The notes: generated from the letters alone by a model not told the origin. 27,982 nt of DNA from a virus (IMGVR_UViG_2850808358_000003), one strand, 5' to 3'; counted from the first letter of the stretch, positions 1-21,066 are shown. Numbers and translations: made by a program.

Positions 1-288
1 ATGTCAACCGGATTACGTTTCACACTGGAAGTGGACGGCCTGCCACCGGATGCTTTTGCGGTGGTTTCCTTTCATCTCACCCAGTCACTCTCTTCACTTT
101 TTTCCCTCGACCTTTCTCTGGTCAGTCAGCAGTTTCTTTCCCTTGAATTTGCGCAGGTGCTGGACAAAATGGCCTACCTGACGGTATGGCAGGGCGATGA
201 CGTACAGCGGCGGGTGAAAGGTGTGGTGACCTGGTTTGAACTGGGGGAGAACGACAAAAACCAGATACTGTACAGCATGATGAGGTGT
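1..288 (+). pseudogene. vgrG: vgrG-like (T6SS spike / Rhs-associated Vgr) N-terminal fragment, 3' end removed by IS insertion
   Basis: ORF 1..327 translation MSTGLRFTLEVDGLPPDAFAVVSF... matches recalled VgrG N-termini up to ...NQILYSM; the last ~13 codons lie inside the IS inverted repeat starting at 289. Confidence 0.55.
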
Positions 289-323
289 ACTGGCAATAGC
301 GGACACTACCATTTGTTCTTTTT

Positions 324-1142
324 TTAAGCAGCCATCTGATGATATTTTTCCCTGAAGGCTGCCGGGGAGATATTCCCCAGACGAGAGTGACGACGCTGAC
401 GATTGTAGAAAATCTCAATGTATTCCCGTATTACTGAGATGGCTTCATCCCGGTTATTAAAACGATAGTGGCTCAGGCTCTCATTTTTCAGCGTTCCCCA
501 GAAGCTTTCCATCGGAGCGTTGTCGTAACAGTTACCTTTACGCGACATTGATGTTTTCAGACCAAACTGCTCCTGTATGACCCGGTAATCGTATGCGCAG
601 TACTGTGAACCTCGATCAGAGTGGTGGATTAGCCCGGCAGGTGGGCGCTGGCTCCTGAGCGCCATAAACAGGGCTTTACCTGTCAGCTCTTTTGTCATGC
701 GCTCTCCCATGGCGTAGCCGACAATTTCGCACGTATAAACATCTTTGATGCCAGCGAGGTACAACCATCCCTCCTGTGTGGCAACATACGTCAGGTCCGC
801 CACCCAGACCTGATTTGGTGCTGTAGGAGCGAACGTCTGGTTCAGCAGATTTGGCGCAACTGGCAGATTGTGGTTCGGGTTCGTAGTCGCTCTGAACTTG
901 CGTTTCTGCTTACAGCGTAGCCTTAGCTCCTTACGAAGACGTGCCAGTCGGTCACGACCAACGATGATGCCATTCTCTGCCAGCTCCGTCTGGAGCCGCC
1001 GGGTTCCATATGTTTCGCGAGTGCGGATATGTGCCACCTTAATCTCCAGTTTTAGCCGCTCATCACTTTGTTTTCTGTCTGAGGGTTCATGCTGTACCCG
1101 GTTGTAATAACCGCTCCTGGATACACCAAATACCTGACACAT
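324..1142 (-). CDS. IS3-family transposase OrfB (DDE integrase domain); normally made as OrfAB transframe fusion
   Basis: 272-aa ORF with ...HHSDRGSQY...CYDNAPMESFW... DDE-type motifs; the -1 frame from the OrfA A-run reads into this frame. Confidence 0.9.
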   Translation of the reverse strand: MCQVFGVSRSGYYNRVQHEPSDRKQSDERLKLEIKVAHIRTRETYGTRRLQTELAENGIIVGRDRLARLRKELRLRCKQKRKFRATTNPNHNLPVAPNLLNQTFAPTAPNQVWVADLTYVATQEGWLYLAGIKDVYTCEIVGYAMGERMTKELTGKALFMALRSQRPPAGLIHHSDRGSQYCAYDYRVIQEQFGLKTSMSRKGNCYDNAPMESFWGTLKNESLSHYRFNNRDEAISVIREYIEIFYNRQRRHSRLGNISPAAFREKYHQMAA

Positions 1143-1177
1143 CGCTTCAATGGGAAATTGTTGTCGCCATTGTTCGA

Positions 1178-1480
1178 TTAACGCGTATTTTTCAGCGACT
1201 CCTGTGCAAAATACGCTGTTGCTTTTTTTAATATATCTCGCTCAAGGCGAGCTTCATTTAACGCCTTACGCAGTTGCAGAATTTCAGATTCCAGTTCAGC
1301 CACCGTGCGGGAACCAGGAGTACCGAGCCCTTTTCTGGCGGCGGTAACCCATTGTCCTAAAGTGCCTTCAGGAAGGGATAATCGGGAAGCGCCTTCACTG
1401 ATCGAAAGTTGATTTTCAAGAACCGTTCTGACAGCTTCGGCTTTGAACTCTTTAGAGTAACGTTGGGTTTTTCTGCTCAT
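1178..1480 (-). CDS. IS3-family transposase OrfA (HTH), 100 aa
   Basis: Translation MSRKTQRYSKEFKAEAVRTV... as recalled for IS600 OrfA; A7G slippery run at 1222..1229 (T7 on plus strand) typical of IS3-family -1 frameshifting. Confidence 0.9.
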   Translation of the reverse strand: MSRKTQRYSKEFKAEAVRTVLENQLSISEGASRLSLPEGTLGQWVTAARKGLGTPGSRTVAELESEILQLRKALNEARLERDILKKATAYFAQESLKNTR

Positions 1481-1545
1481 TATTAGCTCCTTCTGATGCC
1501 ATTCTATTTCAGGAAGGAGTGTCCGTTAAACTCAGGCTACCTCAT

Positions 1546-1899
1546 CTACCCCAGATGAGTAATCCGAAGTTCATCCATACCACAGGTCCTGGCTATTCTG
1601 TTGTACTCCTGAACAAGAGCAAATAATTCTGAATTAGCAACCATGAACTCATCGCAAACCCTCTGTATAGCATCACTATTCAGAATAATAACGTCTCTTC
1701 CCGAAAGACGATCAGGAGTACAGAACAAAACTGTCAAACGGCTGAAGGCCTTTGCTCGTGCTGCATTGACTATATCAATACGCTGCCTAAGGATGAAACA
1801 CCCCGACGCCTCATCAATATTCACTCTACCCGCACCATATGAATGATAAATATTTAATGCTGAAAAAACCATTAGACCGTATAACAAATACTCAATCAA
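1546..1899 (-). CDS. hypothetical protein, 117 aa, AT-rich moron-position ORF downstream of phage tRNAs
   Basis: Intact ORF in AT-rich DNA where random ORFs are rare; co-directional with Q and tRNAs; stop codon 2 nt from IS end; no family recognised. Confidence 0.4.
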   Translation of the reverse strand: MIEYLLYGLMVFSALNIYHSYGAGRVNIDEASGCFILRQRIDIVNAARAKAFSRLTVLFCTPDRLSGRDVIILNSDAIQRVCDEFMVANSELFALVQEYNRIARTCGMDELRITHLG

Positions 1900-2009
1900 T
1901 ACTTAACAGAACTTTTATTTTTGACAAACATATAATATTTTCAACAATATCCTGAGCCAAGTATATTTCAGTATAAGGCTCTGCCGGAAGGAATCTGGAA
2001 GAATGAATA

Positions 2010-2086
2010 TGGCGCGCTGTACTGGATTCGAACCAGTGACCGATTGCTTAGAAGGCAATTGCTCTGTCCGGCTGAGCTAACAACGC
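2010..2086 (-). tRNA. tRNA-Arg (anticodon UCU), phage-borne
   Basis: Minus-strand 77 nt GCGTTGTTAGCTCAGCCGGACAGAGCAATTGCCTTCTAAGCAATCGGTCACTGGTTCGAATCCAGTACAGCGCGCCA; cloverleaf with 7-bp acceptor, GGTTCGAATCC T-loop, anticodon loop CTTCTAA, encoded CCA. Confidence 0.85.
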
Positions 2087-2186
2087 TGAATACCGATAAT
2101 GGACCGCCATCGGGGACCCGCCCCCGCACCAACAACCCTGTTATCGTGTCGTCTGCTCTTCCTGATAAGCTAATGCCGGTTTGTGA

Positions 2187-2262
2187 TGGTGGCCCTTGCT
2201 GGATTTGAACCAGCGACCTGGCGATTATGAGTCGCTCGCTCTCACCACTGAGCTAAAGGGCC
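2187..2262 (-). tRNA. tRNA with anticodon CAU, tRNA-Ile2 (lysidine)-like, alternatively elongator Met
   Basis: Minus-strand 76 nt GGCCCTTTAGCTCAGTGGTGAGAGCGAGCGACTCATAATCGCCAGGTCGCTGGTTCAAATCCAGCAAGGGCCACCA; close to recalled E. coli ileX; anticodon loop CTCATAA. Confidence 0.8.
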
Positions 2263-2288
2263 GGGAGCAGAATAATAACGGTCCGTAA

Positions 2289-2313
2289 TTAATTTCGCAA
2301 TAAAAAATCCGCT
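2289..2313 (-). terminator. short GC hairpin plus U-tract (tR'-like) downstream of late promoter
   Basis: Minus strand CCCGCCGCTGAGCGGATTTTTTATT; short stem CCGC/GCGG then T6. Confidence 0.35.
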
Positions 2314-2362
2314 CAGCGGCGGGTTGTAGAAACTCTTCTAACGTCAGGCATAAAACGCCCAT

Positions 2363-2390
2363 CGTTATGACGAATTTACCACAGATTCCG
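2363..2390 (-). promoter_or_regulatory. candidate late promoter (pR'-like) immediately downstream of Q-like gene
   Basis: Minus strand TTGATT (2385..2390) - 16 nt - TAAATT (2363..2368); position matches pR' in lambdoid phages. Confidence 0.35.
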
Positions 2391-2416
2391 GAAAAATCAA
2401 CCTTGTTACCTTGTTA
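2391..2416. repeat. three tandem 8-bp direct repeats TTGTTACC / TTGTTACC / TAGTTACC overlapping the Q-like stop codon
   Basis: Plus strand ccTTGTTACCTTGTTACCTAGTTACC directly read. Confidence 0.5.
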
Positions 2417-3235
2417 CCTAGTTACCTTTTTTAACTGCCGCTCAGCCCATGCTTCTTCAATATCAAACCGGGTCACCAGCGCATCATAAAATTTCTTAAC
2501 TGTTTTTTCCCATGACGCGCGTGTTATCTGGTTTGTCACCTCGCATATAGCATTAAATGCCTCCGTTGATGGTAGTCTTTCATAGCCACGACCACCACAA
2601 CGCTGGCAGTCTCTGATAACAGGCATACCACGTTTTACCGACTCTTCACGATGAATGGCGACACCACGCCCACGGCAATCCTTACAGGCGGTGGAAACCT
2701 CACCCTTTCCGCCACACTCCGGACAGGCAACTTTTACCACCTCCCTGACTTTTTTCCATTCTTCCCAGTAAGACGGATACACACCTTTCGTACACTTTGC
2801 CCATACCGGCGGCTTACCATCCGGATACTGGACCTTGTTTGTAAAAACTATGCTTTCAATAAATTTTTCCCCATAGCAACAAGGGCACTGCTTTTTACTC
2901 GCTGCGCTGCGGGCATAATCCTCAAAAGCGTACGAAGCCATAATGCGCATCACTACCGGTTTTATTTCTGCCGGAAGTTTTCTCAACGCCGCCACACGAT
3001 CGCACCGACTGAGTGCATAATCTGCCAGTAATTCTGTTGCCCGCGCCCTGTCATTCATACTGATGCCCATTTTCCCCAGGAACGCAGAAAAACCCATCTC
3101 AGCCCGATTCTGTGTCATGCCCTGCGCGGCCATCACATCAGTGATACTCAGCGCATCTTTTGACGTTGAGGCCGATGCATCGGTCAGGCCAGGGGATTTT
3201 GGGGAGTAGTATTTCGGTAAATCTTCCAGTTTCAT
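2414..3235 (-). CDS. Q-like late antiterminator candidate with four CxxCxGxG zinc-finger repeats (273-aa ORF; true start may be downstream)
   Basis: Position between rusA and the pR'-like promoter/tRNAs; CPCCYGEK, CPECGGKG, CKDCRGRG, CQRCGGRG motifs; family assignment by position, not verified. Confidence 0.5.
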   Translation of the reverse strand: MKLEDLPKYYSPKSPGLTDASASTSKDALSITDVMAAQGMTQNRAEMGFSAFLGKMGISMNDRARATELLADYALSRCDRVAALRKLPAEIKPVVMRIMASYAFEDYARSAASKKQCPCCYGEKFIESIVFTNKVQYPDGKPPVWAKCTKGVYPSYWEEWKKVREVVKVACPECGGKGEVSTACKDCRGRGVAIHREESVKRGMPVIRDCQRCGGRGYERLPSTEAFNAICEVTNQITRASWEKTVKKFYDALVTRFDIEEAWAERQLKKVTR

Positions 3236-3249
3236 TTTTTGACCTGCTC

Positions 3250-3607
3250 TTAATGCATTATGGGGTAAATCTTCACCCCCAGACGTCCACCAGATACTGG
3301 CTGACCACGAACGATATTGATTTCATCAAACTGCTCATCGTCCATTAACACTCCCGCATGCGTCAGCGCATCCAGCGGTGCTTTCAGGATATTGTCGCAG
3401 GTCGCGACGACGCTTATCCGGTGGCTCTGCAATCACCTTTATCGCCAGCCTTCCGGACAGGCTTAATTTCAGCCGCTGCTGGCGAACAATAAGCGCCACA
3501 GCCCGGCGATAACGCTTTCCCTCCTCCGAGATAAAATATGTGCTGCCACGGCGTCGCCAGTAAGTGTTCACCGTCGGCGGGTAAGGTAAAACCAAATCTA
3601 TGAGCAT
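3250..3607 (-). pseudogene. rusA: rusA Holliday-junction resolvase, frameshifted
   Basis: ORF 3335..3607 carries the RusA N-terminal part (...PPDKRRRDL) and ORF 3250..3432 the C-terminal part (DNILKAPLDALTHAGVLMDDEQF...) in another frame; extra C near 3396..3400. Confidence 0.75.
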
Positions 3608-3619
3608 CAGTCACCTCTT

Positions 3620-4669
3620 TTACCCAAGCACGCCAGTTGCAAAGGCGTGATCAAGAAAACGAAAAATTAAATCAACCTGAGAACCATGCTTTTCTTCGAA
3701 CGCCAGAGGATCCGCATGAAGCTCGTTGTGATGCTCCCGACACAGCGGTAGCGTGAAAATATCGTGAGATTTTGTCCCCATTCCGCCCTGACCATGACCA
3801 ATCAGGTGATGGGGATCGTCGGCTGGCTTACCACAACACGCACACGGCTGTGTCTTCACCCAGCGTTTGTATTTCTCGTTAACCCAGCGGCGACGTTTAG
3901 GTCGTTTCATGAAAGATTCCGGAGACTCAGGATCAACGGCAATGCTGACCACCGTCTTTTCCTGTGGTGGGTTCTGTTGCTGGTGGGCGTGAGGCAGCGG
4001 CGCAAGATTTTTTGTGCGCTGTTTCAGTATGCTGGTGGCGGTCTGCTCTCCCGGTACGATGTCGCTTTCACGGTACATTGAGCGGATTTTTTCCGCACGC
4101 AACCCCAGCGAACGACGTAATACCGCTTCCGGTAGCGCGTCCGCCACCTGATTGCGGACCGCCCACCAGGATAATTCAGCCAGAGATAGTTCACGCTCCT
4201 GCGTACCGCTTATTGCGTGACCGATGACGTCAATCATCCATGCTGACAGGTTTTGATGAGCAAGTTGCTCGAGTGATTCGGATGTCTGGTCACGCAGCTG
4301 GTTGTCGCAGTGCCAGCACAACACCATTGCGCCGGTACCATAACGGTGAATGACGGTTTCGCTGTGATGATAATCGCCGTGTGGCCACTGGCAGGATTTA
4401 ATATGGCGCAACAGCCAGTCAGACAATGCACCAGCACCACCAGCAGCACGAATCACCCGTGCGTTACTGAAAAACGGCAGCAATGTTTTGTCTTCCACCA
4501 GCGGCTGGCGAGCGGCAGGAACGACCCCGGACGGCAGATTACGCATGCTTTTCGGTTCCGGCTCCACCAGTAACCGGGTATTGTGGAATACCGGCATGGA
4601 TTCACGACCGGGCTTAAGGACCACCAGCCCGAGTTCCGGAACCAGAACAGGTCGAAGTAATACCCGCAC
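3620..4669 (-). CDS. ydfU: DUF968-family prophage protein (YdfU-like) with C-terminal HNH-like Cys/His motif
   Basis: 349-aa ORF; C-terminus CACCGKPADDPHHLIGHG...LCREHHNELH; GTG start as predicted; frame remains open ~75 nt upstream. Confidence 0.6.
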   Translation of the reverse strand: MRVLLRPVLVPELGLVVLKPGRESMPVFHNTRLLVEPEPKSMRNLPSGVVPAARQPLVEDKTLLPFFSNARVIRAAGGAGALSDWLLRHIKSCQWPHGDYHHSETVIHRYGTGAMVLCWHCDNQLRDQTSESLEQLAHQNLSAWMIDVIGHAISGTQERELSLAELSWWAVRNQVADALPEAVLRRSLGLRAEKIRSMYRESDIVPGEQTATSILKQRTKNLAPLPHAHQQQNPPQEKTVVSIAVDPESPESFMKRPKRRRWVNEKYKRWVKTQPCACCGKPADDPHHLIGHGQGGMGTKSHDIFTLPLCREHHNELHADPLAFEEKHGSQVDLIFRFLDHAFATGVLG

Positions 4670-4670
4670 G

Positions 4671-4949
4671 TTACCTCCAGATCCGTTGCTGGAATGTGCG
4701 GGACGGACGCGGTGGCTGTTCGGAGTAAGGGAGCCTGACGGAGATTATCCAGTGACGGTAGTCGAGGCTAAGGGCTTTTTTAACCTCGCATCCGCGCCTG
4801 CGGTAACACTGAATGAGCCATTCGGCCTGTTCTTCAGTGCATGAGGGATGCTGGTACCAGTCTGACTTAAATGCGTGAGAATACCGCTCGTGCGTGTGGG
4901 CAAGAACGGTCGAATTATCATGATTGTAATATTTTGCGTTGCGTGCCAT
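4671..4949 (-). CDS. hypothetical protein, 92 aa, immediately upstream of ydfU-like gene
   Basis: ORF MARNAKYYNHDNSTVLAHTHERYSH...; may be the 5' part of a frameshifted longer DUF968 gene. Confidence 0.35.
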   Translation of the reverse strand: MARNAKYYNHDNSTVLAHTHERYSHAFKSDWYQHPSCTEEQAEWLIQCYRRRGCEVKKALSLDYRHWIISVRLPYSEQPPRPSRTFQQRIWR

Positions 4950-5015
4950 CGGTTTTCTCCGGTGGCACGGTGTTACTCAGCGGGAGTTCAGCCCCGCGCA
5001 AGATTGTAGATGAGT

Positions 5016-5267
5016 TTATTCTTCTGAAAAAGCAGAAAAGCCAGCTTTTATTCCGATCTCTTTCAATGCCTGTAATGAAGTGACAAACTCACCGTCGCGC
5101 AAGATAAATCCGTCCGTCACTCGGGCATCCACAAAATTAATTAACGCAGCCCCATTTTTTTGCAAACACACAATGCGGTAATGACTAACAATATTTCCAT
5201 TTTCAACGCACACAGCATAGAGGCCATCTTCACAAAAAATTTTACGCAGTTCTTCGATGTTCATCAT
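5016..5267 (-). CDS. rem: Rem-like small prophage protein, 83 aa
   Basis: Translation MMNIEELRKIFCEDGLYAVCVENG... as recalled for K-12 Qin rem; position between hokD and ydfU as in Qin. Confidence 0.7.
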   Translation of the reverse strand: MMNIEELRKIFCEDGLYAVCVENGNIVSHYRIVCLQKNGAALINFVDARVTDGFILRDGEFVTSLQALKEIGIKAGFSAFSEE

Positions 5268-5389
5268 CAGAATCCTTCCAGATAAATAGCACTCCCCTGT
5301 TCGGGGTCCATCCCTCTTATCCCTGCGCGCTACTTAAGTATTTTTGATTCTATTCCGGCACCATCCAGAACTTCAAATGCGTTGAAAAT

Positions 5390-5414
5390 AAAAACAAAAA
5401 CCCGCCGAAGCGGG
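5390..5414 (-). terminator. intrinsic terminator after relB-relE-hokD operon
   Basis: Minus strand CCCGCTTCGGCGGG hairpin (UUCG loop) followed by TTTTTGTTTTT. Confidence 0.6.
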
Positions 5415-5484
5415 TTAAGTGCGGGTGCGTTGAGGATGCCTGCCACATCAGAGGTGGCGAGGGATTTCTCACTCGCCGGGTCTC

Positions 5485-5640
5485 TTACTCCTCAGGTTCG
5501 TAAGCTGTGAAGACAGCGACCTCCGTCTGGCCGGTTCGGATTCGTACCTCGCAGAGGTCTTTCCTCGTTACCAGTGCCGTCACTATGACGGTTAAACAGA
5601 TGACGATCAGGGCGATTAACATCGCCTTTTGCTGCTTCAT
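5485..5640 (-). CDS. hokD: HokD/RelF type I toxin, 51 aa (not in ORF track, below length cutoff)
   Basis: Manual translation of minus strand: MKQQKAMLIALIVICLTVIVTALVTRKDLCEVRIRTGQTEVAVFTAYEPEE*. Confidence 0.85.
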   Translation of the reverse strand: MKQQKAMLIALIVICLTVIVTALVTRKDLCEVRIRTGQTEVAVFTAYEPEE

Positions 5641-5711
5641 AGCCTGCTTCTCCTGTCAACGCAAAGCAGAAGTGTCACCTTCGGTGCGAAACAGAGATGT
5701 CATGCTTTGGT

Positions 5712-5999
5712 TCAGAGAATGCGTTTGACCGCCTCGCTATATACTTCCGAGCGTTCTCTTTTCCCAACAGAAATCACGAAAACGACAACTTTCTCGTCTA
5801 TAACCTGGTATACAAGGCGATAGCCTGAAGACCGGAGCTTAATCTTGTAACAATCAGGCATACCACGGAGCTTGTTTGCTTCAATCCGGGGTGACTCAAG
5901 TACTTCAACCAGCTTCTTTTTCAACTGTTCACGTACCGTCGAGCCCAGCTTTCGCCATTCCTTTAGTGCCCGCTCGTCAAAATCCAGAAAATACGCCAT
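5712..5999 (-). CDS. relE: RelE mRNA-interferase toxin
   Basis: 95-aa translation matches recalled K-12 RelE essentially end to end. Confidence 0.95.
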   Translation of the reverse strand: MAYFLDFDERALKEWRKLGSTVREQLKKKLVEVLESPRIEANKLRGMPDCYKIKLRSSGYRLVYQVIDEKVVVFVISVGKRERSEVYSEAVKRIL

Positions 6000-6238
6000 C
6001 AGAGTTCATCCAGCGTCACACGTACTGGCTTAGGATTACGAAGCCGTTCTTTCACTATCTCCACAAGTTCAGCATCTTCATCACTCAGGAGTGTCTGTTT
6101 GAACGGCAAGCGTTCATTGTCAGCGATATACTCGAGCATGAGACGAAGCGCTTCAGAAGGAGTTACACCCATTTTTTCAAGCGCGGCGTAAGAACGCGCT
6201 TTAAGTTCATCGTCAATACGCAGGTTAATGCTACCCAT
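5999..6238 (-). CDS. relB: RelB antitoxin
   Basis: 79-aa translation MGSINLRIDDELKARSYA... matches recalled RelB; stop overlaps relE start. Confidence 0.95.
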   Translation of the reverse strand: MGSINLRIDDELKARSYAALEKMGVTPSEALRLMLEYIADNERLPFKQTLLSDEDAELVEIVKERLRNPKPVRVTLDEL

Positions 6239-6239
6239 G

Positions 6240-6300
6240 TCTTACACCTCTTGTAATTACAAATGTCATTACAAGTATCGCACTACAACATGCTTAGGGC
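6240..6300 (-). promoter_or_regulatory. relBE promoter/operator region with palindromic TTGTAAT repeats
   Basis: TTGTAATTACAAATGTCATTACAA at 6251..6274, 13 bp upstream of relB start. Confidence 0.5.
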
Positions 6301-6453
6301 AAGTCACGAAGGAAGTCAGAAAGTAGTCGTAAGAACGGTGATCACTGTCCGCTTTGTGCCAGGAGCAGCCATTGCTAAGTCCATCCTGTTGAGGTAGCCT
6401 GAGTTTAACGGACACTCCTTCCTGAAATAGAATGGCATCAGAAGGAGCTAATA

Positions 6454-6756
6454 ATGAGCAGAAAAACCCAACGTTACTCTAAAGAGTTCAAAGCCGAAGC
6501 TGTCAGAACGGTTCCTGAAAATCAACTTTCGATCAGTGAAGGCGCTTCCCGATTATCCCTTCCTGAAGGCACTTTAGGACAATGGGTTACCGCCGCCAGA
6601 AAAGGGCTCGGTACTCCTGGTTCCCGCACGGTGGCTGAACTGGAATCTGAAATTCTGCGACTGCGTAAGGCGTTAAATGAAGCTCGCCTTGAGCGAGATA
6701 TATTAAAAAAAGCAACAGCGTATTTTGCACAGGAGTCGCTGAAAAATACGCGTTAA
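6454..6756 (+). CDS. IS3-family transposase OrfA (copy 2; L28P and Q68R relative to copy 1)
   Basis: Same 100-aa protein as 1178..1480 with two substitutions. Confidence 0.9.
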   Translation: MSRKTQRYSKEFKAEAVRTVPENQLSISEGASRLSLPEGTLGQWVTAARKGLGTPGSRTVAELESEILRLRKALNEARLERDILKKATAYFAQESLKNTR

Positions 6757-6791
6757 TCGAACAATGGCGACAACAATTTCCCATTGAAGCG

Positions 6792-7211
6792 ATGTGTCAG
6801 GTATTTGGTGTATCCAGGAGCGGTTATTACAACCGGGTACAGCATGAACCCTCAGACAGAAAACAAAGTGATGAGCGGCTAAAACTGGAGATTAAGGTGG
6901 CACATATCCGCACTCGCGAAACATATGGAACCCGGCGGCTCCAGACGGAGCTGGCAGAGAATGGCATCATCGTTGGTCGTGACCGACTGGCACGTCTTCG
7001 TAAGGAGCTAAGGCTACGCTGTAAGCAGAAACGCAAGTTCAGAGCGACTACGAACCCGAACCACAATCTGCCAGTTGCGCCAAATCTGCTGAACCAGACG
7101 TTCGCTCCTACAGCACCAAATCAGGTCTGGGTGGCGGACCTGACGTATGTTGCCACACAGGAGGGATGGTTGTACCTCGCTGGCATCAAAGATGTTTATA
7201 CGTGCGAAATT
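6792..7211 (+). pseudogene. IS3-family transposase OrfB, 3'-truncated at codon ~140
   Basis: Identical to copy 1 OrfB through ...GIKDVYTCEI, then diverges at the junction. Confidence 0.85.
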
Positions 7212-8494
7212 TTTCCCGCGAGGTTGAAGCGGCATGGAAAGAGTTTGCCGAGGATGACTGCTGCTGCATTGACGTTGAGCGGAAACGCACGTTTACCATG
7301 ATGATTCGGGAAGGTGTGGCCATGCACGCCTTTAACGGTGAACTGTTCGTTCAGGCCACCTGGGATACCAGTCCCTCGCGACTGTTCCGGACACAGTTCC
7401 GGATGGTCAGCCCGAAGCGCATCAGCAACCCGAACAATACCGGCGACAGCCGGAACTGCCGTGCCGGTGTGCAGATTAATGACAGCGGTGCGGCGTTGGG
7501 ATATTACGTCAGCGAGGACGGCTATCCTGGCTGGATGCCGCAGAAATGGACATGGATACCCCGTGAGTTACCCGGCGGGCGCGCCTCGTTCATTCACGTT
7601 TTTGAACCCGTGGAGGACGGGCAGACCCGCGGTGCAAATGTGTTTTACAGCGTGATGGAGCAGATGAAGATGCTCGACACACTGCAGAACACGCAGCTGC
7701 AGAGCGCCATTGTGAAGGCGATGTATGTCGCCACCATTGAGAGTGAGCTGGATACGCAGTCAGCGATGGATTTTATTCTGGGCGCGAACAGTAAGGAGCA
7801 GCGGGACAAGCTGACCGGCTGGATTGGTGAAATTGCCGCGTATTACGCCGCAGCACCGGTCCGTCTGGGAGGCGCAAAAGTGCCGCACCTGATGCCGGGG
7901 GACTCACTGAACCTGCAGACGGCTCAGGACACGGATAACGGCTACTCCGTGTTTGAGCAGTCACTGTTGCGGTATATCGCTGCCGGGCTGGGTGTCTCGT
8001 ATGAGCAGCTTTCCCGGAATTACGCCCAGATGAGCTACTCCACGGCACGGGCCAGTGCGAACGAGTCGTGGGCGTACTTTATGGGGCGGCGAAAATTCGT
8101 CGCATCCCGTCAGGCGAGCCAGATGTTTCTGTGCTGGCTGGAAGAGGCCATCGTTCGCCGCGTGGTGACGTTACCTTCAAAAGCGCGTTTCAGCTTTCAG
8201 GAAGCCCGCAGCGCCTGGGGGAACTGTGACTGGATAGGCTCCGGTCGTATGGCCATCGATGGTCTGAAAGAAGTACAGGAAGCGGTGATGCTGATAGAAG
8301 CCGGACTGAGTACCTACGAGAAAGAGTGCGCAAAACGCGGTGACGACTATCAGGAAATTTTTGCCCAGCAGGTCCGTGAAACGATGGAGCGCCGTGCAGC
8401 CGGTCTTAAACCGCCCGCCTGGGCGGCTGCGGCATTTGAATCCGGACTGCGACAATCAACAGAGGAGGAGAAGAGTGACAGCAGAGCTGCGTAA
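7212..8494 (+). pseudogene. B: lambda portal protein B, lacking roughly the first 107 codons
   Basis: ORF 7166..8494 from residue ~16 onward matches recalled lambda gpB C-terminal ~426 aa; first 15 residues are IS-derived. Confidence 0.9.
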
Positions 8495-9794
8495 TCTCCC
8501 GCATATTGCCAGCATGGCTTTTAATGAGCCGCTGATGCTTGAACCCGCCTATGCGCGGGTTTTCTTTTGTGCGCTTGCAGGCCAGCTTGGGATCAGCCGC
8601 CTGACGGATGCGGTGTCCGGTGACAGCCTGACTGCCGGAGAGGCACCCGCGACGCTGGCGTTATCCGTTAATGATGACGGACCACGACAGGCCCGCAGTT
8701 ATCAGGTCATGAACGGCATCGCCGTGCTGCCGGTTTCCGGCACGCTGGTCAGCCGGACGCGGGCGCTGCAGCCGTATTCGGGGATGACCGGTTACAACGG
8801 CATTATCGCCCGTCTGCAACAGGCTGCCAGCGACCCGATGGTGGACGGCATTCTGCTGGATATGGACACGCCCGGCGGAATGGTGGCAGGGGCATTTGAC
8901 TGCGCTGACATCATCGCCCGTGTGCGTGACATAAAGCCGGTATGGGCGCTGGCCAATGACATGAACTGCAGCGCAGGTCAGCTGCTTGCCAGTGCCGCCT
9001 CCCGGCGTCTGGTCACGCAGACCGCCCGGACAGGCTCCATCGGCGTCATGATGGCTCACAGTAATTACGGTGCTGCGCTGGAGAAACAGGGCGTGGAAAT
9101 CACGCTGATTTACAGCGGCAGCCATAAGGTGGATGGCAACCCCTACAGCCATCTACCGGATGATGTCCGGGAAACACTGCAGTCCCGGATGGATGCAACC
9201 CGCCGGATGTTTGCACAGAAGGTGTCGGCATATACCGGCCTGTCCGTGCAGGCTGTGCTGGATACCGAGGCTGCAGTGTACAGCGGTCAGGAGGCCATTG
9301 ATGCCGGACTGGCTGATGAACTTGTTAACAGTACCGATGCGATCACCGTCATGCGTGATGCACTGGATGCACGTAAATCCCGTCTCTCAGGAGGGCGAAT
9401 GACCAAAGAGACTCAATCAACAACTGTTTCAGCCACTGCTTCGCAGGCTGACGTTACTGGCGTGGTGCAAGCGACGGAGGGCGAGAACGCCAGCGCTGCG
9501 CAGCCGGACGTGAACGCGCAGATCACCGCAGCGGTTGCGGCAGAAAACAGTCGCATTATGGGGATCCTCAACTGTGAGGAGGCTCACGGACGCGAAGAAC
9601 AGGCACGCGTGCTGGCCGAAACCCCTGGTATGACCGTGGAAACGGCCCGCCGCATTCTGGCAGCTGCACCACAGAGTGCACAGGCGCGCAGTGACACTGC
9701 GCTGGATCGTCTGATGCAGGGGGCACCGGCACCGCTGGCTGCAGGTAACCCGGCATCTGATGCCGTTAACGATTTGCTGAACACACCAGTGTAA
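8475..9794 (+). CDS. C: lambda C, prohead protease / minor capsid protein (S49 family); GTG start
   Basis: Translation from GTG at 8475 (VTAELRNLPHIASMAFNEPLMLEP...) matches recalled lambda gpC; start overlaps B stop. Confidence 0.9.
   Translation: MTAELRNLPHIASMAFNEPLMLEPAYARVFFCALAGQLGISRLTDAVSGDSLTAGEAPATLALSVNDDGPRQARSYQVMNGIAVLPVSGTLVSRTRALQPYSGMTGYNGIIARLQQAASDPMVDGILLDMDTPGGMVAGAFDCADIIARVRDIKPVWALANDMNCSAGQLLASAASRRLVTQTARTGSIGVMMAHSNYGAALEKQGVEITLIYSGSHKVDGNPYSHLPDDVRETLQSRMDATRRMFAQKVSAYTGLSVQAVLDTEAAVYSGQEAIDAGLADELVNSTDAITVMRDALDARKSRLSGGRMTKETQSTTVSATASQADVTGVVQATEGENASAAQPDVNAQITAAVAAENSRIMGILNCEEAHGREEQARVLAETPGMTVETARRILAAAPQSAQARSDTALDRLMQGAPAPLAAGNPASDAVNDLLNTPV
9189..9794 (+). 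CDS. Nu3: Nu3 scaffolding protein (in-frame internal start within C)
   Basis: In-frame ATG at 9189 (MDATRRMFAQ...) 606 nt before the C stop, as recalled for lambda Nu3. Confidence 0.6.
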   Translation: MDATRRMFAQKVSAYTGLSVQAVLDTEAAVYSGQEAIDAGLADELVNSTDAITVMRDALDARKSRLSGGRMTKETQSTTVSATASQADVTGVVQATEGENASAAQPDVNAQITAAVAAENSRIMGILNCEEAHGREEQARVLAETPGMTVETARRILAAAPQSAQARSDTALDRLMQGAPAPLAAGNPASDAVNDLLNTPV

Positions 9795-9803
9795 GGGATG
9801 TTT

Positions 9804-10136
9804 ATGACGAGCAAAGAAACCTTTACCCATTACCAGCCGCTGGGCAACAGTGACCCGGCTCATACCGCAACCGCGCCCGGCGGATTGAGTGCGAAAGCGC
9901 CTGCAATGACCCCGCTGATGCCGGACACCTCCACCCGTAAGCTGGTTGCGTGGGATGGCACCACCGACGGTGCTGCCGTTGGCATTCTTGCGGTTGCTGC
10001 TGACCAGACCAGCACCACGCTGACGTTCTACAAGTCCGGCACGTTCCGTTATGAGGATGTGCTCTGGCCGGAGGCTGCTAGCGATGAGACGAAAAAACGG
10101 ACCGCGTTTGCCGGAACGGCAATCAGCATCCTTTAA
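9804..10136 (+). CDS. D: lambda D head decoration protein
   Basis: [27 protein letters not shown]... matches lambda gpD. Confidence 0.9.
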
Positions 10137-10153
10137 CCTTACCCTTCATCACT

Positions 10154-10178
10154 AAAGGCCGCCTGTGCGGCTTTTTTT
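10154..10178 (+). terminator. D-E intergenic GC hairpin with T7 tract (terminator-like / mRNA structure)
   Basis: GCCGC-CTGT-GCGGC followed by TTTTTTT. Confidence 0.4.
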
Positions 10179-10191
10179 ACGGGATTTTTTT

Positions 10192-11217
10192 ATGTCGATG
10201 TACACAACCGCCCAGCTGCTGGCGGCAAATGAGCAGAAATTTAAGTTTGATCCGCTGTTTCTGCGTCTCTTTTTCCGTGAGAGCTATCCCTTCACCACGG
10301 AGAAAGTCTATCTCTCACAAATTCCGGGACTGGTAAACATGGCGCTGTACGTTTCGCCGATTGTTTCCGGTGAGGTTATCCGTTCCCGTGGCGGATCCAC
10401 CTCTGAATTTACACCGGGATATGTCAAGCCCAAGCATGAGGTGAATCCGCAGATGACCCTGCGTCGCCTGCCGGATGAAGATCCGCAGAATCTGGCGGAC
10501 CCGGCTTACCGCCGCCGTCGCATCATCCTGCAGAACATGCGAGACGAAGAGCTGGCCATTGCTCAGGTCGAAGAGATGCAGGCCGTTTCTGCCGTGCTCA
10601 AGGGCAAATACACCATGACCGGTGAAGCCTTCGATCCGGTTGAGGTGGATATGGGCCGCAGTGCGGCGAACAACATCACGCAGTCCGGCGGCACGGAGTG
10701 GAGCAAGCGTGACAAGTCCACGTATGACCCGACCGACGATATCGAAGCCTACGCGCTGAACGCCAGCGGCGTGGTGAATATCATCGTGTTTGACCCGAAA
10801 GGCTGGGCGCTGTTCCGTTCCTTCAAAGCCGTCAGGGAGAAGCTGGATACCCGTCGCGGCTCTCATTCCGAACTGGAGACAGCGGTAAAAGACCTGGGCA
10901 AAGCGGTGTCTTATAAGGGAATGTATGGCGATGTGGCCATCGTCGTGTATTCCGGACAGTACGTGGAAAACGGCGTCAAAAAGAACTTCCTGCCGGACAA
11001 CACGATGGTGCTGGGTAACACTCATGCACGCGGTCTGCGCTCCTATGGCTGTATTCAGGATGCGGATGCATTGAGTGAGGGTATTAATGCGTCTCCCCGT
11101 TATCCGAAAAACTGGAAGACATCCGGCGATCCGGCGCGAGAGTTCACCATGATTCAGTCAGCACCGCTGATGCTGCTGGCTGATCCTGATGAGTTCGTGG
11201 CCGTTCAACTGGCGTAA
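10192..11217 (+). CDS. E: lambda E major capsid protein
   Basis: MSMYTTAQLLAANEQKFKFDPLFLRLFF... matches lambda gpE. Confidence 0.95.
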   Translation: MSMYTTAQLLAANEQKFKFDPLFLRLFFRESYPFTTEKVYLSQIPGLVNMALYVSPIVSGEVIRSRGGSTSEFTPGYVKPKHEVNPQMTLRRLPDEDPQNLADPAYRRRRIILQNMRDEELAIAQVEEMQAVSAVLKGKYTMTGEAFDPVEVDMGRSAANNITQSGGTEWSKRDKSTYDPTDDIEAYALNASGVVNIIVFDPKGWALFRSFKAVREKLDTRRGSHSELETAVKDLGKAVSYKGMYGDVAIVVYSGQYVENGVKKNFLPDNTMVLGNTHARGLRSYGCIQDADALSEGINASPRYPKNWKTSGDPAREFTMIQSAPLMLLADPDEFVAVQLA

Positions 11218-11258
11218 TCATGGCCCTTCGGGGCCATTTTCTCTCTGTGGAGGAGTCC

Positions 11259-11654
11259 ATGACGAAAGATGAACTGATTGCCCGTCTTCAGGTGCTGGGT
11301 GAGCAACTGAACCGTGATGTCAGCCTGACGGGGACGAAAGAAGAACTGGCGCTCCGTGTGGCAGAGCTGGAAGAGGAGCTTGATGACACGGATGACGCAG
11401 CCGGTCAGGACACGTCTGTCAGCCCGGAAAATGCGCTGACCGGACATAAAAATGAGGTGGTATCAGAACAGACGGATACCGTGACTGATACGGCTGCTCT
11501 GGTCACGGTCGTGGCACTGGTGACGCTGCATACCGATGCACTTCACGCCACGCGGGATGAACCTGTGGCATTTGTGCTGCCGGGAACGGCGTTTCGTGTC
11601 TCTGCCGGTGTGGCAGCCGAAATGACAGAACGTGGCCTGGCCAGAATGCAATAA
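11259..11654 (+). CDS. FI: lambda FI DNA-packaging protein
   Basis: MTKDELIARLQVLGEQLNRDVSLTGTKEELALRVAEL... matches lambda gpFI. Confidence 0.85.
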   Translation: MTKDELIARLQVLGEQLNRDVSLTGTKEELALRVAELEEELDDTDDAAGQDTSVSPENALTGHKNEVVSEQTDTVTDTAALVTVVALVTLHTDALHATRDEPVAFVLPGTAFRVSAGVAAEMTERGLARMQ

Positions 11655-11665
11655 CGGGAGGCGCT

Positions 11666-12019
11666 GTGGCTGATTTCGATAACCTGTTCGATGCTGCCAT
11701 TGCCCGCGCCGATGAAACGATACGCGGGTACATGGGAACGTCAGCCACCATGACATCCGGTGAGCAGTCCGGCGCAGTAATACGTGGTGTTTTTGATGAC
11801 CCTGAAAATATCAGCTATGCCGGACAGGGCGTGCGCGTTGAAGGCTCCAGCCCGTCCCTGTTTGTCCGGACTGATGATGTGCGGCAACTGCGGCGTGGAG
11901 ACACGCTGACCATCGGTGAGGAAAACTTCTGGATAGACCGGGTTTCGCCGGATGATGGTGGAAGCTGTCATCTCTGGCTTGGGCGGGGCGTACCGCCTGC
12001 CGTTAACCGTCGCCGCTGA
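11666..12019 (+). CDS. FII: lambda FII head-tail joining protein; GTG start
   Basis: MADFDNLFDAAIARADETIRGYMG... matches lambda gpFII. Confidence 0.9.
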   Translation: MADFDNLFDAAIARADETIRGYMGTSATMTSGEQSGAVIRGVFDDPENISYAGQGVRVEGSSPSLFVRTDDVRQLRRGDTLTIGEENFWIDRVSPDDGGSCHLWLGRGVPPAVNRRR

Positions 12020-12030
12020 AAGGGGGATGT

Positions 12031-12579
12031 ATGGCCATAAAAGGTCTTGAGCAGGCCGTTGAAAACCTCAGCCGTATCAGCAAAACGGCGGTGCCTGGTG
12101 CCGCCGCAATGGCCATTAACCGCGTTGCTTCATCCGCGATATCGCAGTCGGCGTCACAGGTTGCCCGTGAGACAAAGGTACGCCGGAAACTGGTAAAGGA
12201 AAGGGCCAGGCTGAAAAGGGCCACGGTAAAAAATCCGCAGGCCAGAATCAAAGTTAACCGGGGGGATTTGCCCGTAATCAGGCTGGTTAACGCGCGGATT
12301 GTCCTGTCCCGACGCAGGCGTCGTAAAAAGGGGCAGCGTTCAGCCCTGAAAGGTGGCGGCAGCGTGCTTGTGGTGGGAAACCGTCGTATTCCCGGCGCGT
12401 TTATTCAGCAACTGAAAAATGGCCGGTGGCATGTCATGCAGCGTGTGGCCGGGAAAAACCGTTACCCCATTGATGTGGTGAAAATCCCGATGGCGGTGCC
12501 GCTGACCACGGCGTTTAAACAGAATATTGAGCGGATACGGCGTGAACGTCTTCCGAAAGCGCTGGACTATGCGCTGTAG
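12031..12579 (+). CDS. Z: lambda Z tail completion protein, ends at in-frame TAG 10 codons before the ancestral stop
   Basis: MAIKGLEQAVENLSRISKTAVPG... matches lambda gpZ; frame continues HQLRMVIKR to TGA at 12607..12609 overlapping the U start. Confidence 0.85.
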   Translation: MAIKGLEQAVENLSRISKTAVPGAAAMAINRVASSAISQSASQVARETKVRRKLVKERARLKRATVKNPQARIKVNRGDLPVIRLVNARIVLSRRRRRKKGQRSALKGGGSVLVVGNRRIPGAFIQQLKNGRWHVMQRVAGKNRYPIDVVKIPMAVPLTTAFKQNIERIRRERLPKALDYAL

Positions 12580-12605
12580 CATCAACTGAGGATGGTAATA
12601 AAGCG

Positions 12606-13001
12606 ATGAAACATACTGAACTCCGTGCAGCCGTACTGGATGCACTGGAGAAGCATGACACCGGGGCGACGTTTTTTGATGGTCGCCCCGCTGTTTTTGA
12701 TGAGGCGGATTTTCCGGCAGTTGCCGTTTATCTCACCGGCGCTGAATACACGGGCGAAGAGCTGGACAGCGATACCTGGCAGGCGGAGCTGCATATCGAA
12801 GTTTTCCTGCCTGCTCAGGTGTCGGATTCAGAGCTGGATGCGTGGATGGAGTCCCGGATTTATCCGGTGATGAGTGATATCCCGGCACTGTCAGATTTGA
12901 TCACCAGTATGGTGGCCAGCGGCTATGACTACCGGCGCGACGATGATGCGGGCCTGTGGAGTTCAGCCGATCTGACTTATGTCATTACCTATGAAATGTG
13001 A
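12606..13001 (+). CDS. U: lambda U tail terminator protein
   Basis: [26 protein letters not shown]... matches lambda gpU. Confidence 0.9.
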
Positions 13002-13008
13002 GGACGAT

Positions 13009-13749
13009 ATGCCAACACCAAATCCTCTGGCACCGGTGAAAGGGGCCGGGACCACCCTGTGGGTTTATAACGGGAGCGGCGACCCTTATGCAAACCCGCT
13101 TTCAGACAATGACTGGTCGCGTCTGGCAAAGGTTAAAGACCTGACGCCCGGCGAACTGACCGCTGAGTCCTATGACGACAGTTATCTCGATGATGAAGAT
13201 GCGGACTGGGCCGCGACCGGACAGGGGCAGAAATCTGCCGGAGATACCAGCTTCACGCTGGCGTGGATGCCCGGAGAGCAGGGGCAGCAGGCGCTGCTGG
13301 CGTGGTTTAATGAAGGTGATACCCGTGCCTATAAAATCCGCTTCCCGAACGGCACGGTCGATGTGTTCCGCGGCTGGGTCAGCAGTATCGGTAAGGCGGT
13401 GACGGCGAAGGAAGTGATCACCCGCACGGTGAAAGTCACCAACGTGGGACGTCCGTCGATGGCAGAAGATCGCAGCACGGTAACAGCGGCAACCGGCATG
13501 ACCGTGACGCCTGCCAGCACCTCGGTGGTGAAAGGACAGAGCACTACGCTGACCGTGGCATTCCAGCCGGAAGGCGCAACCGACAAGAGCTTCCGTGCGG
13601 TGTCTGCGGATAAAACAAAAGCCACCGTGTCGGTCAGTGGTATGACCATCACCGTGAAAGGTGTTGCTGCAGGCAAGGTCAACATTCCGGTCGTATCCGG
13701 TAATGGTGAACTTGCTGCGGTTGCAGAAATCAACGTCACCGCCCGTTAA
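13009..13749 (+). CDS. V: lambda V major tail protein with C-terminal Ig-like domain
   Basis: [33 protein letters not shown]... matches lambda gpV. Confidence 0.9.
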
Positions 13750-13764
13750 TCCGGAGAGTCAGCG

Positions 13765-14188
13765 ATGTTCCTGAAAACCGAATCATTTGAACATAACGGT
13801 GTGACCGTCACGCTTTCTGAACTGTTAGCCCTGCAGCGTATTGAGCATCTTGCCTGGTTGAAAAGAGCAGGAAAAAAAGGCTGAATCCAGTGGCAACCTG
13901 CAGGTGTCTGTAGAGGAGCTTATCAGAGGCGGGGCGTTTCTGGTGGCGATGTCTCTGTGGCATAACCATCCACAGAAGACAAAGCTGCCGTCCATGAATG
14001 AAGCCATTACGCAGATTGAGCAGGAAGTGCTTACCACCTGGCCCACGGAGGCAATTGCTCAGGCTGAAAACGTGGTGTTACGTCTGTCCGGAATGTCTGA
14101 GTTTGTGGTGAATGATGCTCCTGAACAGACAGAGGACGCCGGGCCTGCAGAGCCTGTTTCTGCGGGAAAGTGTTCGACGGTGAGCTGA
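13765..14188 (+). pseudogene. G: lambda G tail assembly chaperone, disrupted by +1 frameshift in an A7 run
   Basis: Frame from ATG 13765 stops at 13882..13884 after MFLKTESFEHNGVTVTLSEL...; rest of G (ORF 13904..14188) is in the +1 frame; A7 at 13872..13878. Confidence 0.8.
14164..14170 (+). promoter_or_regulatory. programmed -1 ribosomal frameshift slippery heptamer G GGA AAG (G to G-T)
   Basis: GGGAAAG near the end of G, in phase with the G frame; T frame is the -1 frame. Confidence 0.75.
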
Positions 14189-14604
14189 GTTTTGCCCTGA
14201 AACTGGCGCGTGAGATGGGGCGACCCGACTGGCGTGCCATGCTTGCCGGGATGTCATCCACGGAGTATGCCGACTGGCACCGCTTTTACAGTACCCATTA
14301 TTTTCATGATGTTCTGCTGGATATGCACTTTTCCGGGCTGACATACACCGTCCTCAGCCTGTTTTTCAGCGATCCGGATATGCATCCGCTGGATTTCAGT
14401 CTGCTTAACCGGCGCGAGGCTGACGAAGAGCCTGAAGATGATGTGCTGATGCAGAAAGCGGCAGGGCTTGCCGGAGGCGTCCGCTTTGGCCCGGACGGGA
14501 ATGAAGTTATCCGCGCTTCCCCGGATGTGGCGGATATGACGGAGGATGACGTAATGCTGATGACAGTATCAGAAGGGATCGCAGGAGGAGTCCGGTATGG
14601 CTGA
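14170..14604 (+). CDS. T: T segment of the G-T tail assembly chaperone (no independent start; made by frameshifting)
   Basis: ORF 14170..14604 translation matches lambda gpT; stop overlaps H start. Confidence 0.75.
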   Translation: MFDGELSFALKLAREMGRPDWRAMLAGMSSTEYADWHRFYSTHYFHDVLLDMHFSGLTYTVLSLFFSDPDMHPLDFSLLNRREADEEPEDDVLMQKAAGLAGGVRFGPDGNEVIRASPDVADMTEDDVMLMTVSEGIAGGVRYG

Positions 14605-14837
14605 ACCGGTAGGCGATCTGGTCGTTGATTTGAGTCTGGATGCGGCCAGATTTGACGAGCAGATGGCCAGAGTCAGGCGTCATTTTTCCGGTACGGAAAG
14701 TGATGCGAAAAAAACAGCGGCAGTCGTTGAACAGTCGCTGAGCCGACAGGCGCTGGCTGCACAGAAAGCGGGGATTTCCGTCGGGCAGTATAAAGCCGCC
14801 ATGCGTATGCTGCCTGCGCAGTTCACCGACGTGGCCA
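14597..14837 (+). pseudogene. H: lambda H tape-measure protein, first ~80 codons only
   Basis: MAEPVGDLVVDLSLDAARFDEQMARVRRHF...AQFTDVAT matches lambda gpH N-terminus, then diverges into I sequence out of frame. Confidence 0.85.
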
Positions 14838-15440
14838 CGCATCTGCCTTTACGGGGATTTACAACGATTTGGCCGCCGCATCGACCTTCGTGTAAAAACG
14901 GGGGCTGAAGCCATCCGGGCGCTGTCCACACAGGTCCCGGCATTTCGTCAGAAACTGAGTGACGGCTGGTATCAGGTACGGATTGCCGGGCGTGATGCAG
15001 GTGAAACCGAATTGTCTGCCCGTCTTAATGAGCCGCTGGCAAATGGTGCCGTGATCCACATCGTGCCGCGTCTGGCGGGAGCTAAAAGCGGCGGTGTGCT
15101 TCAGGTGGTGCTGGGGGCGGCGCTGATTGCGGTGGCATGGTGGAACCCTGTGGGCTGGCTGGGTGCCGCGGCTGTATCGGGCATGTATGCGGCAGGGGCC
15201 AGTATGATCCTGGGCGGAGTGGCGCAGATGCTGGCACCGAAAGCCAGGACGCCCACGGCAGCAAGTACAGATAACGGCAAACAGAACACCTATTTCTCCT
15301 CACTGGATAACATGGTTGCCCAGGGCAATGTTCTGCCTGTTCTGTACGGTGAAATGCGCGTGGGGTCACGCGTGGTTTCTCAGGAGATCAGCACGGCAGA
15401 TGAAGGGGATGGTGGTCAGGTTGTGGTGATTGGTCGTTGA
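14838..15440 (+). pseudogene. I: lambda I tail assembly protein, 5'-truncated (from about codon 15) and joined to H'
   Basis: From ~14838 the frame reads RICLYGDLQRFGRRIDLRVKTGAEAIRAL... matching recalled lambda gpI; no start codon until TTG at 15012. Confidence 0.85.
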
Positions 15441-15458
15441 TGCAAAATGTTTTATGTG

Positions 15459-15479
15459 AAACCGCCTCCGGGCGGTTTT
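15459..15479 (+). terminator. I-J intergenic hairpin (terminator-like)
   Basis: AAACCGCC-TCCG-GGCGGTTTT. Confidence 0.35.
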
Positions 15480-15497
15480 GTCGTTTATGGAGCGTGA

Positions 15498-20336
<4,839 letters not shown>

Positions 20337-20354
20337 ATTTTATAACCCAGAACG

Positions 20355-20381
20355 GGCGTCAGAAATGACGCCTTTTTTATT
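20355..20381 (+). terminator. intrinsic terminator downstream of J
   Basis: GGCGTC-AGAAAT-GACGCC followed by TTTTTTATT. Confidence 0.65.
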
Positions 20382-20402
20382 GCAGAAAAGCGAGAGGTAA
20401 TT

Positions 20403-21002: not shown

Positions 21003-21029
21003 TTAGCCAGGTAACACAGTGTTATGACA

Positions 21030-21055: not shown

Positions 21056-21066
21056 GTGGGGTGAAT

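Follow-up and report, generated by a model that had tools for sequence, protein, structure and literature searches.

The 27,982-nt stretch analyzed here (IMGVR_UViG_2850808358_000003, in full length referred to as the window) carries part of a lambdoid prophage in which two inverted copies of the insertion sequence (IS) IS600 enclose a block of early and late regulatory genes pointing against the head and tail genes. We consider it fairly probable that the window is the remnant of one prophage at the Qin site (ydfJ/rspB) of an IS-rich, Shigella-like chromosome, and that it was reorganized through nested IS600 inversions together with a deletion. An earlier note, made from the sequence alone, had explained the arrangement by an IS-mediated inversion of the enclosed block with an adjacent deletion. 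The flip of the block is retained here as one likely step, but it does not suffice as the whole account, since the left flank of the window and a missing target-site duplication require a further large inversion.

An exact look-up of a chimeric open reading frame (ORF) at the left end of the window, VgrG', led to the source record CP026877.1, a chromosome of 5.13 Mb (5,129,092 bp; assembly GCA_002950035.1). We read positions 653,660-697,893 of this record and followed the orientation of flanking genes for 10 kb left of the window and 6 kb right of it. Escherichia coli GB089, a single record, served as the reference for all orientations, and junctions were searched for in 5,426 complete E. coli genomes. 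The host chromosome appears Shigella-like from its IS load and pseudogenes.

Both IS copies were identified by their sequence as IS600, a member of the IS3 group of the IS3 family. Copy 1 (281-1544, minus strand) is complete with 1264 bp, the length expected of IS600, and runs from TGAGGTGTAC... at position 281 to ...GGCTACCTCA at 1544, its right inverted repeat (IRR) end toward vgrG and its left inverted repeat (IRL) end toward the phage block. The IS600 termini (TGAGGTAGCC... and TGAGGTGTAC...) share their first 6 nt (TGAGGT) and match partially thereafter, as imperfect inverted repeats. The element encodes orfA (1178-1480, minus; 100 aa, PF01527, HTH_Tnp_1) and orfB (324-1142, minus; 272 aa, PF00665, rve, and others), with an A7G slippery run in the A-rich overlap of the two frames and TTAAAAAAAG near the 3' end of orfA, from which frameshifting is predicted. 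It is 95.9-99.8% identical to the 44 full-length IS600 copies used for comparison (from Shigella flexneri SFBU1023 and E. coli ECMA0423) and 99.4-99.8% identical to most of the S. flexneri copies, and the matching sequence in E. coli records is annotated as "IS3-like element IS600 family" transposase. In length, termini, gene content and slippery overlap it therefore behaves as IS600; what sets the pair in the window apart is that copy 1 has no target duplication and that copy 2 is an 822-nt stub with two non-consensus substitutions in OrfA.

Copy 2 (6390-7211, plus strand; IS nt 1-822) is inserted in ydfV after ...CATCCTGT and has lost its outer end, namely 442 nt of the element (nt 823-1264). 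Its orfA (6454-6756, plus) carries the substitutions L21P and Q69R. The orfB of this copy is broken near codon 140, and the frame continues into portal DNA as a chimeric OrfB'-portal ORF of 169 aa (6792-7301, plus); for an IS-portal ORF from 7166 there is no called gene. Copy 2 is dead. The arms of the inverted repeat (723-1544 and 6390-7211, 822 nt each) are separated by 4845 nt and are identical at 820 of 822 positions in direct comparison. One mismatch lies at IS nt 126 (window 1419 T, 6515 C; L21P) and the other at IS nt 270 (window 1275 A, 6659 G; Q69R). Copy 1 has the consensus alleles at the two sites, shared by 41 of 42 and by 43 of 43 of the other IS600 copies, while the derived alleles of copy 2 occur in 1 of 42 and 0 of 43. 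The inverted IS3-family pair with a truncated second copy, and the two differences in orfA, had been recognized correctly in the earlier note; it gave the end of copy 1 at 1544 as we find it, but placed its start at 289, 8 nt inside the complete element.

No target-site duplication accompanies copy 1, whose flanks read ..GTAGA and TCATG.. in IS orientation (a duplication of 3-5 bp was sought). In a calibration on two Shigella-type genomes, 14 of 32 full IS600 copies had kept their duplication, so that recombinant copies lacking one are routine in such genomes. We therefore read copy 1 as a recombinant copy, and its identity as IS600 stands.

The block between the copies (1545-6389) is the early/late-regulatory part of a Qin-site lambdoid prophage. 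It is colinear with, and 97.3% identical to, positions 1970718-1975553 in the prophage of GB089, and the relB-relE-hokD-rem-ydfU-Q module stands next to ydfV, as in the relatives. Both of its ends coincide exactly with IRL ends of IS600. All three IS600 target sites implied by the junctions are uninterrupted in relatives: ydfV continues there as ...CATCCTGT/ATTGTGCAGG, with copy 2 at the slash, and the boundary at the IRL end of copy 1 continues in GB089 and ECMA0423 into DUF3927, tolA-like and lysis genes (native sequence ...GATATGTA/TCTACCCC); the third site lies in vgrG. Neither the complete E. coli genomes nor the IS600 loci of SFBU1023 and ECMA0423 included a relative with IS600 at the same sites, and when the 75 IS600 loci of these two strains were compared with all junction flanks by BLAST, ECMA0423 shared no junction with the window. 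ECMA0423 (CP178302.1; 4.44 Mb, IS600-rich; L071, L059) carries the same type of prophage with IS600 elsewhere, one copy lying 134 bp deeper in ydfV and another some 1.3 kb past DUF3927, as independent insertions.

Everything between the IS600 copies is on the minus strand except for a 127-nt 5' stub of ydfV on the plus strand. The earlier statement that the block is entirely on the minus strand accordingly holds for relB, relE, hokD, rem, ydfU, rusA', Q and the tRNAs; it fails for the ydfV stub, and the ORF117 that it listed has no support as a gene. The morphogenesis genes after copy 2 (7212-24809) are on the plus strand, as the note had said, both by gene calls and by colinearity with the prophage of strain B379. 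The intact prophages at the same site in GB089, B379 and STEC17-190, and the phage mEp460, are all co-directional, in the order relBE-hokD-rem-ydfU-Q, lysis, Nu1-A-W-B-C-D-E...J-stf-tfa-pinQ-ydfK, followed by ydfJ'. The opposition of the two blocks is hence a departure from IS-free relatives, and both halves of the window fit one ydfJ-site prophage.

What lies outside the IS pair changes how this opposition has to be read. Window positions 1-280 (plus strand) belong to the chromosome and not to the phage, being the 5'-terminal part of a vgrG gene of the type VI secretion system, a point missed by the earlier note. The fragment (codons 1-93 and 1 nt; translation MSTGLRFTLEVDGLPPDAF...) is cut by IS600, matches Pfam Phage_GPD, falls in a protein cluster whose members are named VgrG, and is 93.9% identical to nt 1-280 of vgrG in GB089, where the native continuation is AGGTGTGCC. 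Upstream in the source record are ydcZ, mnaT, curA, mcbR, a split yncD, yncE, ansP, yncG and yncH, and then vgrG. In reference genomes vgrG is about 160 kb away from the Qin-site prophage. The bounds of the window follow gene calls, its start being exactly the ATG of vgrG and its end exactly the stop codon of ydfJ'. The vgrG target just past the insertion point (AGGTGT..., GB089 vgrG nt 271-290) resembles the end of the inserted IS600 (TGAGGTGT...), which may be chance or may reflect targeting of sequences like their own ends by IS3-family elements.

In GB089, ydcZ(-)...yncH(+) leads to vgrG(+) at 1,815,886 and then to about 120 kb of backbone with dif at 1,891,568. Further along follow dgcZ(-), dcp(-), ydfG(+), ydfI(-) and ydfJ'(-), and then the prophage as tail(-)...portal(-)...lysis(-)...tRNAs(-), Q(-)...relB(-), ydfV(+)...int(+), with rspB beyond. 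The left side of the source locus reads vgrG'(+), IS600, tRNAs(-), Q(-)...relB(-), ydfV'(+), IS600', and the right side portal'(+)...tail(+), ydfJ'(+), ydfI(+), ydfZ(-), ydfH(-), ydfG(-), dcp(+), the genes from ydfI to dcp lying past the window. The right side is the exact reverse of GB089 in order and strands, whereas the block at 1545-6389 keeps its GB089 strand relative to the vgrG flank. The flipped part is thus portal-tail-ydfJ-ydfI...dcp and not the bracketed block. The earlier description of the order as a mirror image of K-12 Qin was right in that the block and the morphogenesis genes are opposed, but not in the frame of the chromosome, in which the block is native with respect to ydcZ...yncH-vgrG. 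On the GB089 map, dif lies between the two outer breakpoints, 75 kb from one and 84 kb from the other.

The joint between copy 2 and the head genes is of another kind than the IS600 ends. At 7210-7212, IS600 nt 821/822 meets portal nt 319/320 (codon 107; the note had put the fusion at about codon 108) with a microhomology of 1-2 T. The window reads GCGAAATTTTTCCCGCG, the intact IS GCGAAATT/GTCGG and the B379 portal gene CGTGCC/TTTTCCCGCG. Lysis genes, Nu1, A, W and the 5' end of the portal gene (B) are absent from the window, as had been reported. The short microhomology and the loss of IS nt 823-1264 mark an illegitimate joint and not an adjacent deletion made by the transposase. Of the adjacent deletion proposed earlier, the absence of about 9 kb from the locus therefore stands; its attribution to an IS end does not, since IS nt 823-1264 are gone as well.

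For a history that accounts for these observations we divided the native arrangement into segments: A, ending in yncH and vgrG5'; B, from vgrG3' through dif to ydfI and ydfJ'; C, from the tail to portal codon 107; D, with the portal 5' end, terminase, cos, lysis, tolA-like and DUF3927 genes; S, with the tRNAs, Q to relB and ydfV5'; and E, with ydfV3', flxA to int and rspB. The native order A B C D S E has become A-IS600-S-IS600'-C-B, with C and B reverse-complemented. Four native adjacencies are broken, and at least two inversions are needed. For recombination between inverted IS copies, we found inverted homologous repeats at both ends of the block and the un-inverted arrangement in relatives. 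The exchange of flanks that a single flip would leave was not found, as the sequence outside copy 1 is vgrG and not the ydfV 3' part from which position 6389 is broken; a single local flip is hence insufficient, and nested inversions are compatible with the data.

We propose that the history would have started with three IS600 insertions, in vgrG, at the boundary between ORF117 and DUF3927 downstream of Q, and in ydfV. Three events, in any order, may have followed. RecA-type recombination between the inverted copies in vgrG and ydfV would have inverted about 160 kb across dif, an inversion roughly symmetric about dif and of a kind that is tolerated. Recombination between the copies flanking segment S, which is the event of the earlier note, would have flipped the 4.8-kb block. 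A deletion at 1-2 nt of microhomology, from IS600 nt 823 to portal codon 107, would have removed segment D (about 9 kb). The far junction would then be expected as reverse-complemented vgrG3', IS600 and ydfV3', with a vgrG-side joint reading ...AACTCAGGCTACCTCA/TGA/AGGTGTGCC... in vgrG orientation at an IRL end of IS600, and a ydfV-side joint reading ...GCCAGTACACCTCA/(TGT)/ATTGTGCAGGTCAGC. The junction sequences, the gene orientations on both flanks, the missing target duplication and the co-directional order of IS-free relatives are direct observations; from them we infer the number and order of these events, the true loss of segment D and the identity of the far junction.

Several points weigh against this history. 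The partner junctions, with vgrG 3', ydfV 3' and segment D, would lie outside the readable positions of the source record, and a search for the expected IS600-ydfV3' joint gave 0 hits in a genome collection to which the source chromosome does not belong. No sibling genome in an intermediate state was found, and the junction-specific proteins are unique to one assembly. Three events on top of three IS600 insertions make a long chain, to which an alternative with two events exists. In addition, no relative was found to combine the exact rusA-Q-tRNA module with lambda-type B-C-D-E heads, so that the origin from a single prophage is parsimonious rather than proven.

The alternative with two events dispenses with the deletion and with a dedicated flip of the small block. 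In it, portal codon 107 and nt 822/823 of the ydfV IS600 would first have been the endpoints of a reciprocal inversion of the illegitimate type; homologous recombination between the vgrG copy of IS600 and the copy at the ORF117/DUF3927 boundary would then have produced a second inversion. Both observed junctions would be reproduced by these two rearrangements only, and a microhomology of 1-2 nt fits any illegitimate joint. Segment D would survive elsewhere as vgrG3' (reverse complement)-IS600-D (reverse complement)-IS600(823-1264)-ydfV3', which predicts a 121-aa chimera of portal residues 1-106 and CRLRHGRAHDKRADR, the latter from out-of-frame IS600. This chimera was not found among 174 portal N-terminal proteins in a collection of 5.8 billion protein clusters that holds the proteins of the source genome; 0 of the 174 matches came from the source chromosome. 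Illegitimate inversions are also much rarer than illegitimate deletions. We regard this sequence of events as unlikely.

We find a derivation from two separate lambdoid prophages similarly improbable, in which the halves would never have adjoined and IS600 recombination would have placed the relBE-Q block of one beside the ydfJ-site head/tail remnant of the other. The best matches do differ, with the Q block closest to GB089 (97.3%), whose head module is non-lambda, and the heads and tails closest to B379 and STEC17-190 (about 96-97%), whose Q module differs; the same Q block is moreover present in the free phage mEp460. Such differences are, however, explained by the mosaicism of lambdoid phages. 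The combination of relBE-hokD-rem-ydfU with ydfV/flxA is a signature of ydfJ/rspB-site prophages in every reference examined, and the strand of the block relative to vgrG is the native one expected for that site.

An artifact of assembly, with the orientation of 1545-6389 set wrongly, or the coexistence of both orientations in culture, would agree with the fact that every junction is private to one assembly, and turning the block around would save one inversion. Against this, the repeats measure only 0.8-1.3 kb and contain two distinguishing SNPs, a finished chromosome of 5.13 Mb implies long reads that would span the 4.8-kb block, and the vgrG-IS600 and IS600(822)-portal joints would be unaffected in any case. 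We rate this explanation as quite unlikely.

The privacy of the arrangement itself is clear in the genomes searched. The four junctions had 0 occurrences among the complete E. coli genomes, and in the whole assembly collection the proteins VgrG' (108 aa), OrfB'-portal (169 aa), J' (846 aa) and Stf (1055 aa) were found in CP026877.1 only, whereas the TfaQ and pinQ' sequences are too common to discriminate, with exact matches only in unrelated genomes. The arrangement belongs to a single strain or assembly. No publication mentioning CP026877.1 or GCA_002950035.1 was found, and neither appears in the supplements of PMC8072062.

Very little speaks for the simple history in which a single IS600 x IS600 flip within a prophage that stayed in place, and an IS-mediated adjacent deletion from the lysis genes to the portal 5' end, account for everything. 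It is true that the block is bracketed by 822 nt of inverted homology and that it opposes head and tail genes which are co-directional with it in relatives. Yet the left outer flank is vgrG rather than ydfV3'/flxA, and copy 1 has no target-site duplication; the block has its native strand with respect to the backbone on the left, and it is the tail-ydfJ-dcp side that is inverted; and the deletion ends inside the IS (nt 822) instead of at its end. A phage-borne vgrG-like sequence adjoining ydfV was not seen in any relative.

That the 4.8-kb block between its 99.8%-identical inverted arms is a reversible recombination switch, with both orientations coexisting, seems scarcely credible to us. If it were one, Q-dependent late transcription in the deposited orientation would enter the intact transposase genes of IS600 co-directionally and vgrG' in antisense, and in the other orientation would enter the head and tail remnant, while the intact relBE and hokD addiction modules would favor retention of the block. 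A composite transposon (IS600-block-IS600) that moved into vgrG is just as implausible: although a discrete 4.8-kb segment does lie between two IS600 copies, with a left joint at a precise IS end, both outward ends would be IRR, loss of the right outer end leaves no flanking target-site duplication to demonstrate, and the inverted tail-ydfJ DNA that follows the right copy in place of vgrG 3' would be left unexplained.

The genes of the bracketed block are, from left to right and on the minus strand unless stated, the dubious ORF117 (1546-1899; no Pfam match, unannotated in GB089 and mEp460, and not counted as a gene), tRNA-Arg(tct) (2010-2086), a tRNA with anticodon cat (2187-2262; annotated as Ile in GB089), the Q antiterminator (2414-3235), rusA' (3335-3607), ydfU/DUF968 (3620-4669), an ORF of 92 aa termed orf92 (4671-4949), rem (5016-5267), hokD (5485-5640; Pfam Hok), relE (5712-5999; RelE/ParE fold), relB (5999-6238) and the ydfV 5' stub (6263-6389, plus), which copy 2 cuts at codon 42. 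Genes of this block were assigned with the help of Pfam matches. rusA' is frameshifted by an additional G near 3397 compared with GB089, giving 90 aa instead of 118 aa. Two further differences from GB089 are an 8-nt insertion (TGTTACCT) at about 2412, beside the stop codon of Q, and an additional G at about 5299, between rem and hokD.

The lambda-type morphogenesis block (7212-24809, plus) comprises the portal gene without codons 1-106, C, D, E, FI, FII, Z, U, V, a split G, T, H', I', J, lom, stf and tfa. It is colinear, with gaps, with the B379 prophage at about 96.7% identity, and colinear also with that of STEC17-190. M, L and K are lost through a deletion of about 4 kb, at about 14823-14841, which joins roughly 100 initial codons of the tape-measure gene H to a 3' portion of I. 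The BLAST segments overlap there by 19 nt, an overlap that suggests a short repeat at the H'-I joint. J is interrupted by IS4 at about 18035-19462, the transposase of which is split into three ORFs (52, 119 and 277 aa); this IS4 shares 99% identity with the one in STEC17-190, where the element occupies another site. Apart from the two tRNAs, the Rfam scan of the window returned only IS009 (RF02111; full length, 220.9 bits) at 24577-24775 on the plus strand, inside tfa and overlapping its 3' part.

The native tail-end boundary of the prophage (24899-27982, plus) contains pinQ' (25051-25365, minus; frameshifted) and ydfK and then passes into the truncated chromosomal ydfJ' (26699-27982, plus). 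From 21067 to 27982, that is stf-tfa-pinQ-ydfK abutting ydfJ', the window is colinear with B379 and STEC17-190, and portal...tail...ydfJ is contiguous in 382 complete E. coli genomes. In the backbone near the window, yncD/pqqU is split into two ORFs (L003 2992-5092), ydeJ is shortened to 100 aa where relatives have 172 aa, and the ydfH/rspR call has 263 aa instead of 228 aa (L098 22630-22932 and 18882-19673). Such a pseudogenized backbone fits a decaying genome of the Shigella-like type.

Among known systems, the locus is closest to the IS-mediated inversions of Shigella and enteroinvasive E. coli (Seferbekova et al. 2021, PMC8072062), in a survey that placed 103 of 114 reconstructed inversions on Shigella branches and named recombination between inverted IS copies as their cause. 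It shares with them inverted copies of an abundant IS, breakpoints in pseudogenes, recombinant copies without target-site duplication, a dif-spanning and roughly symmetric inversion, and a prophage left defective; it differs in that its set of junctions occurs in one record only and that one joint is non-homologous and inside the IS. With K-12 Qin and the relatives in GB089, B379, STEC17-190 and mEp460 it has in common the neighbor ydfJ', relBE-hokD-rem-ydfU with ydfV, Q, a lambda-type tail ending in stf-tfa-pinQ-ydfK, and decay by deletion and IS insertion. Unlike in these, the regulatory block of the window runs against the morphogenesis genes and adjoins vgrG across an IS600, and lysis genes, cos and terminase are missing from the locus; the int-dicB side, with the integrase end next to rspB, lies beyond the window.

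Judged by its gene content, the prophage is dead: cos and terminase are absent, and none of portal, H, M, L, K and J is intact. Q and the tRNAs downstream of it are uncoupled from lysis and morphogenesis, and the relBE and hokD toxin-antitoxin modules are intact. The kind of event is already known: this is ordinary IS600-driven scrambling and decay, with no new mechanism or gene family, and its significance beyond annotation is small. A neat local picture of an IS pair around an inverted block misleads if the outer flanks are left unchecked. The locus is one end of what is probably a dif-spanning inversion of about 160 kb and is as such useful for reconstructing the rearrangement histories of Shigella-type chromosomes.

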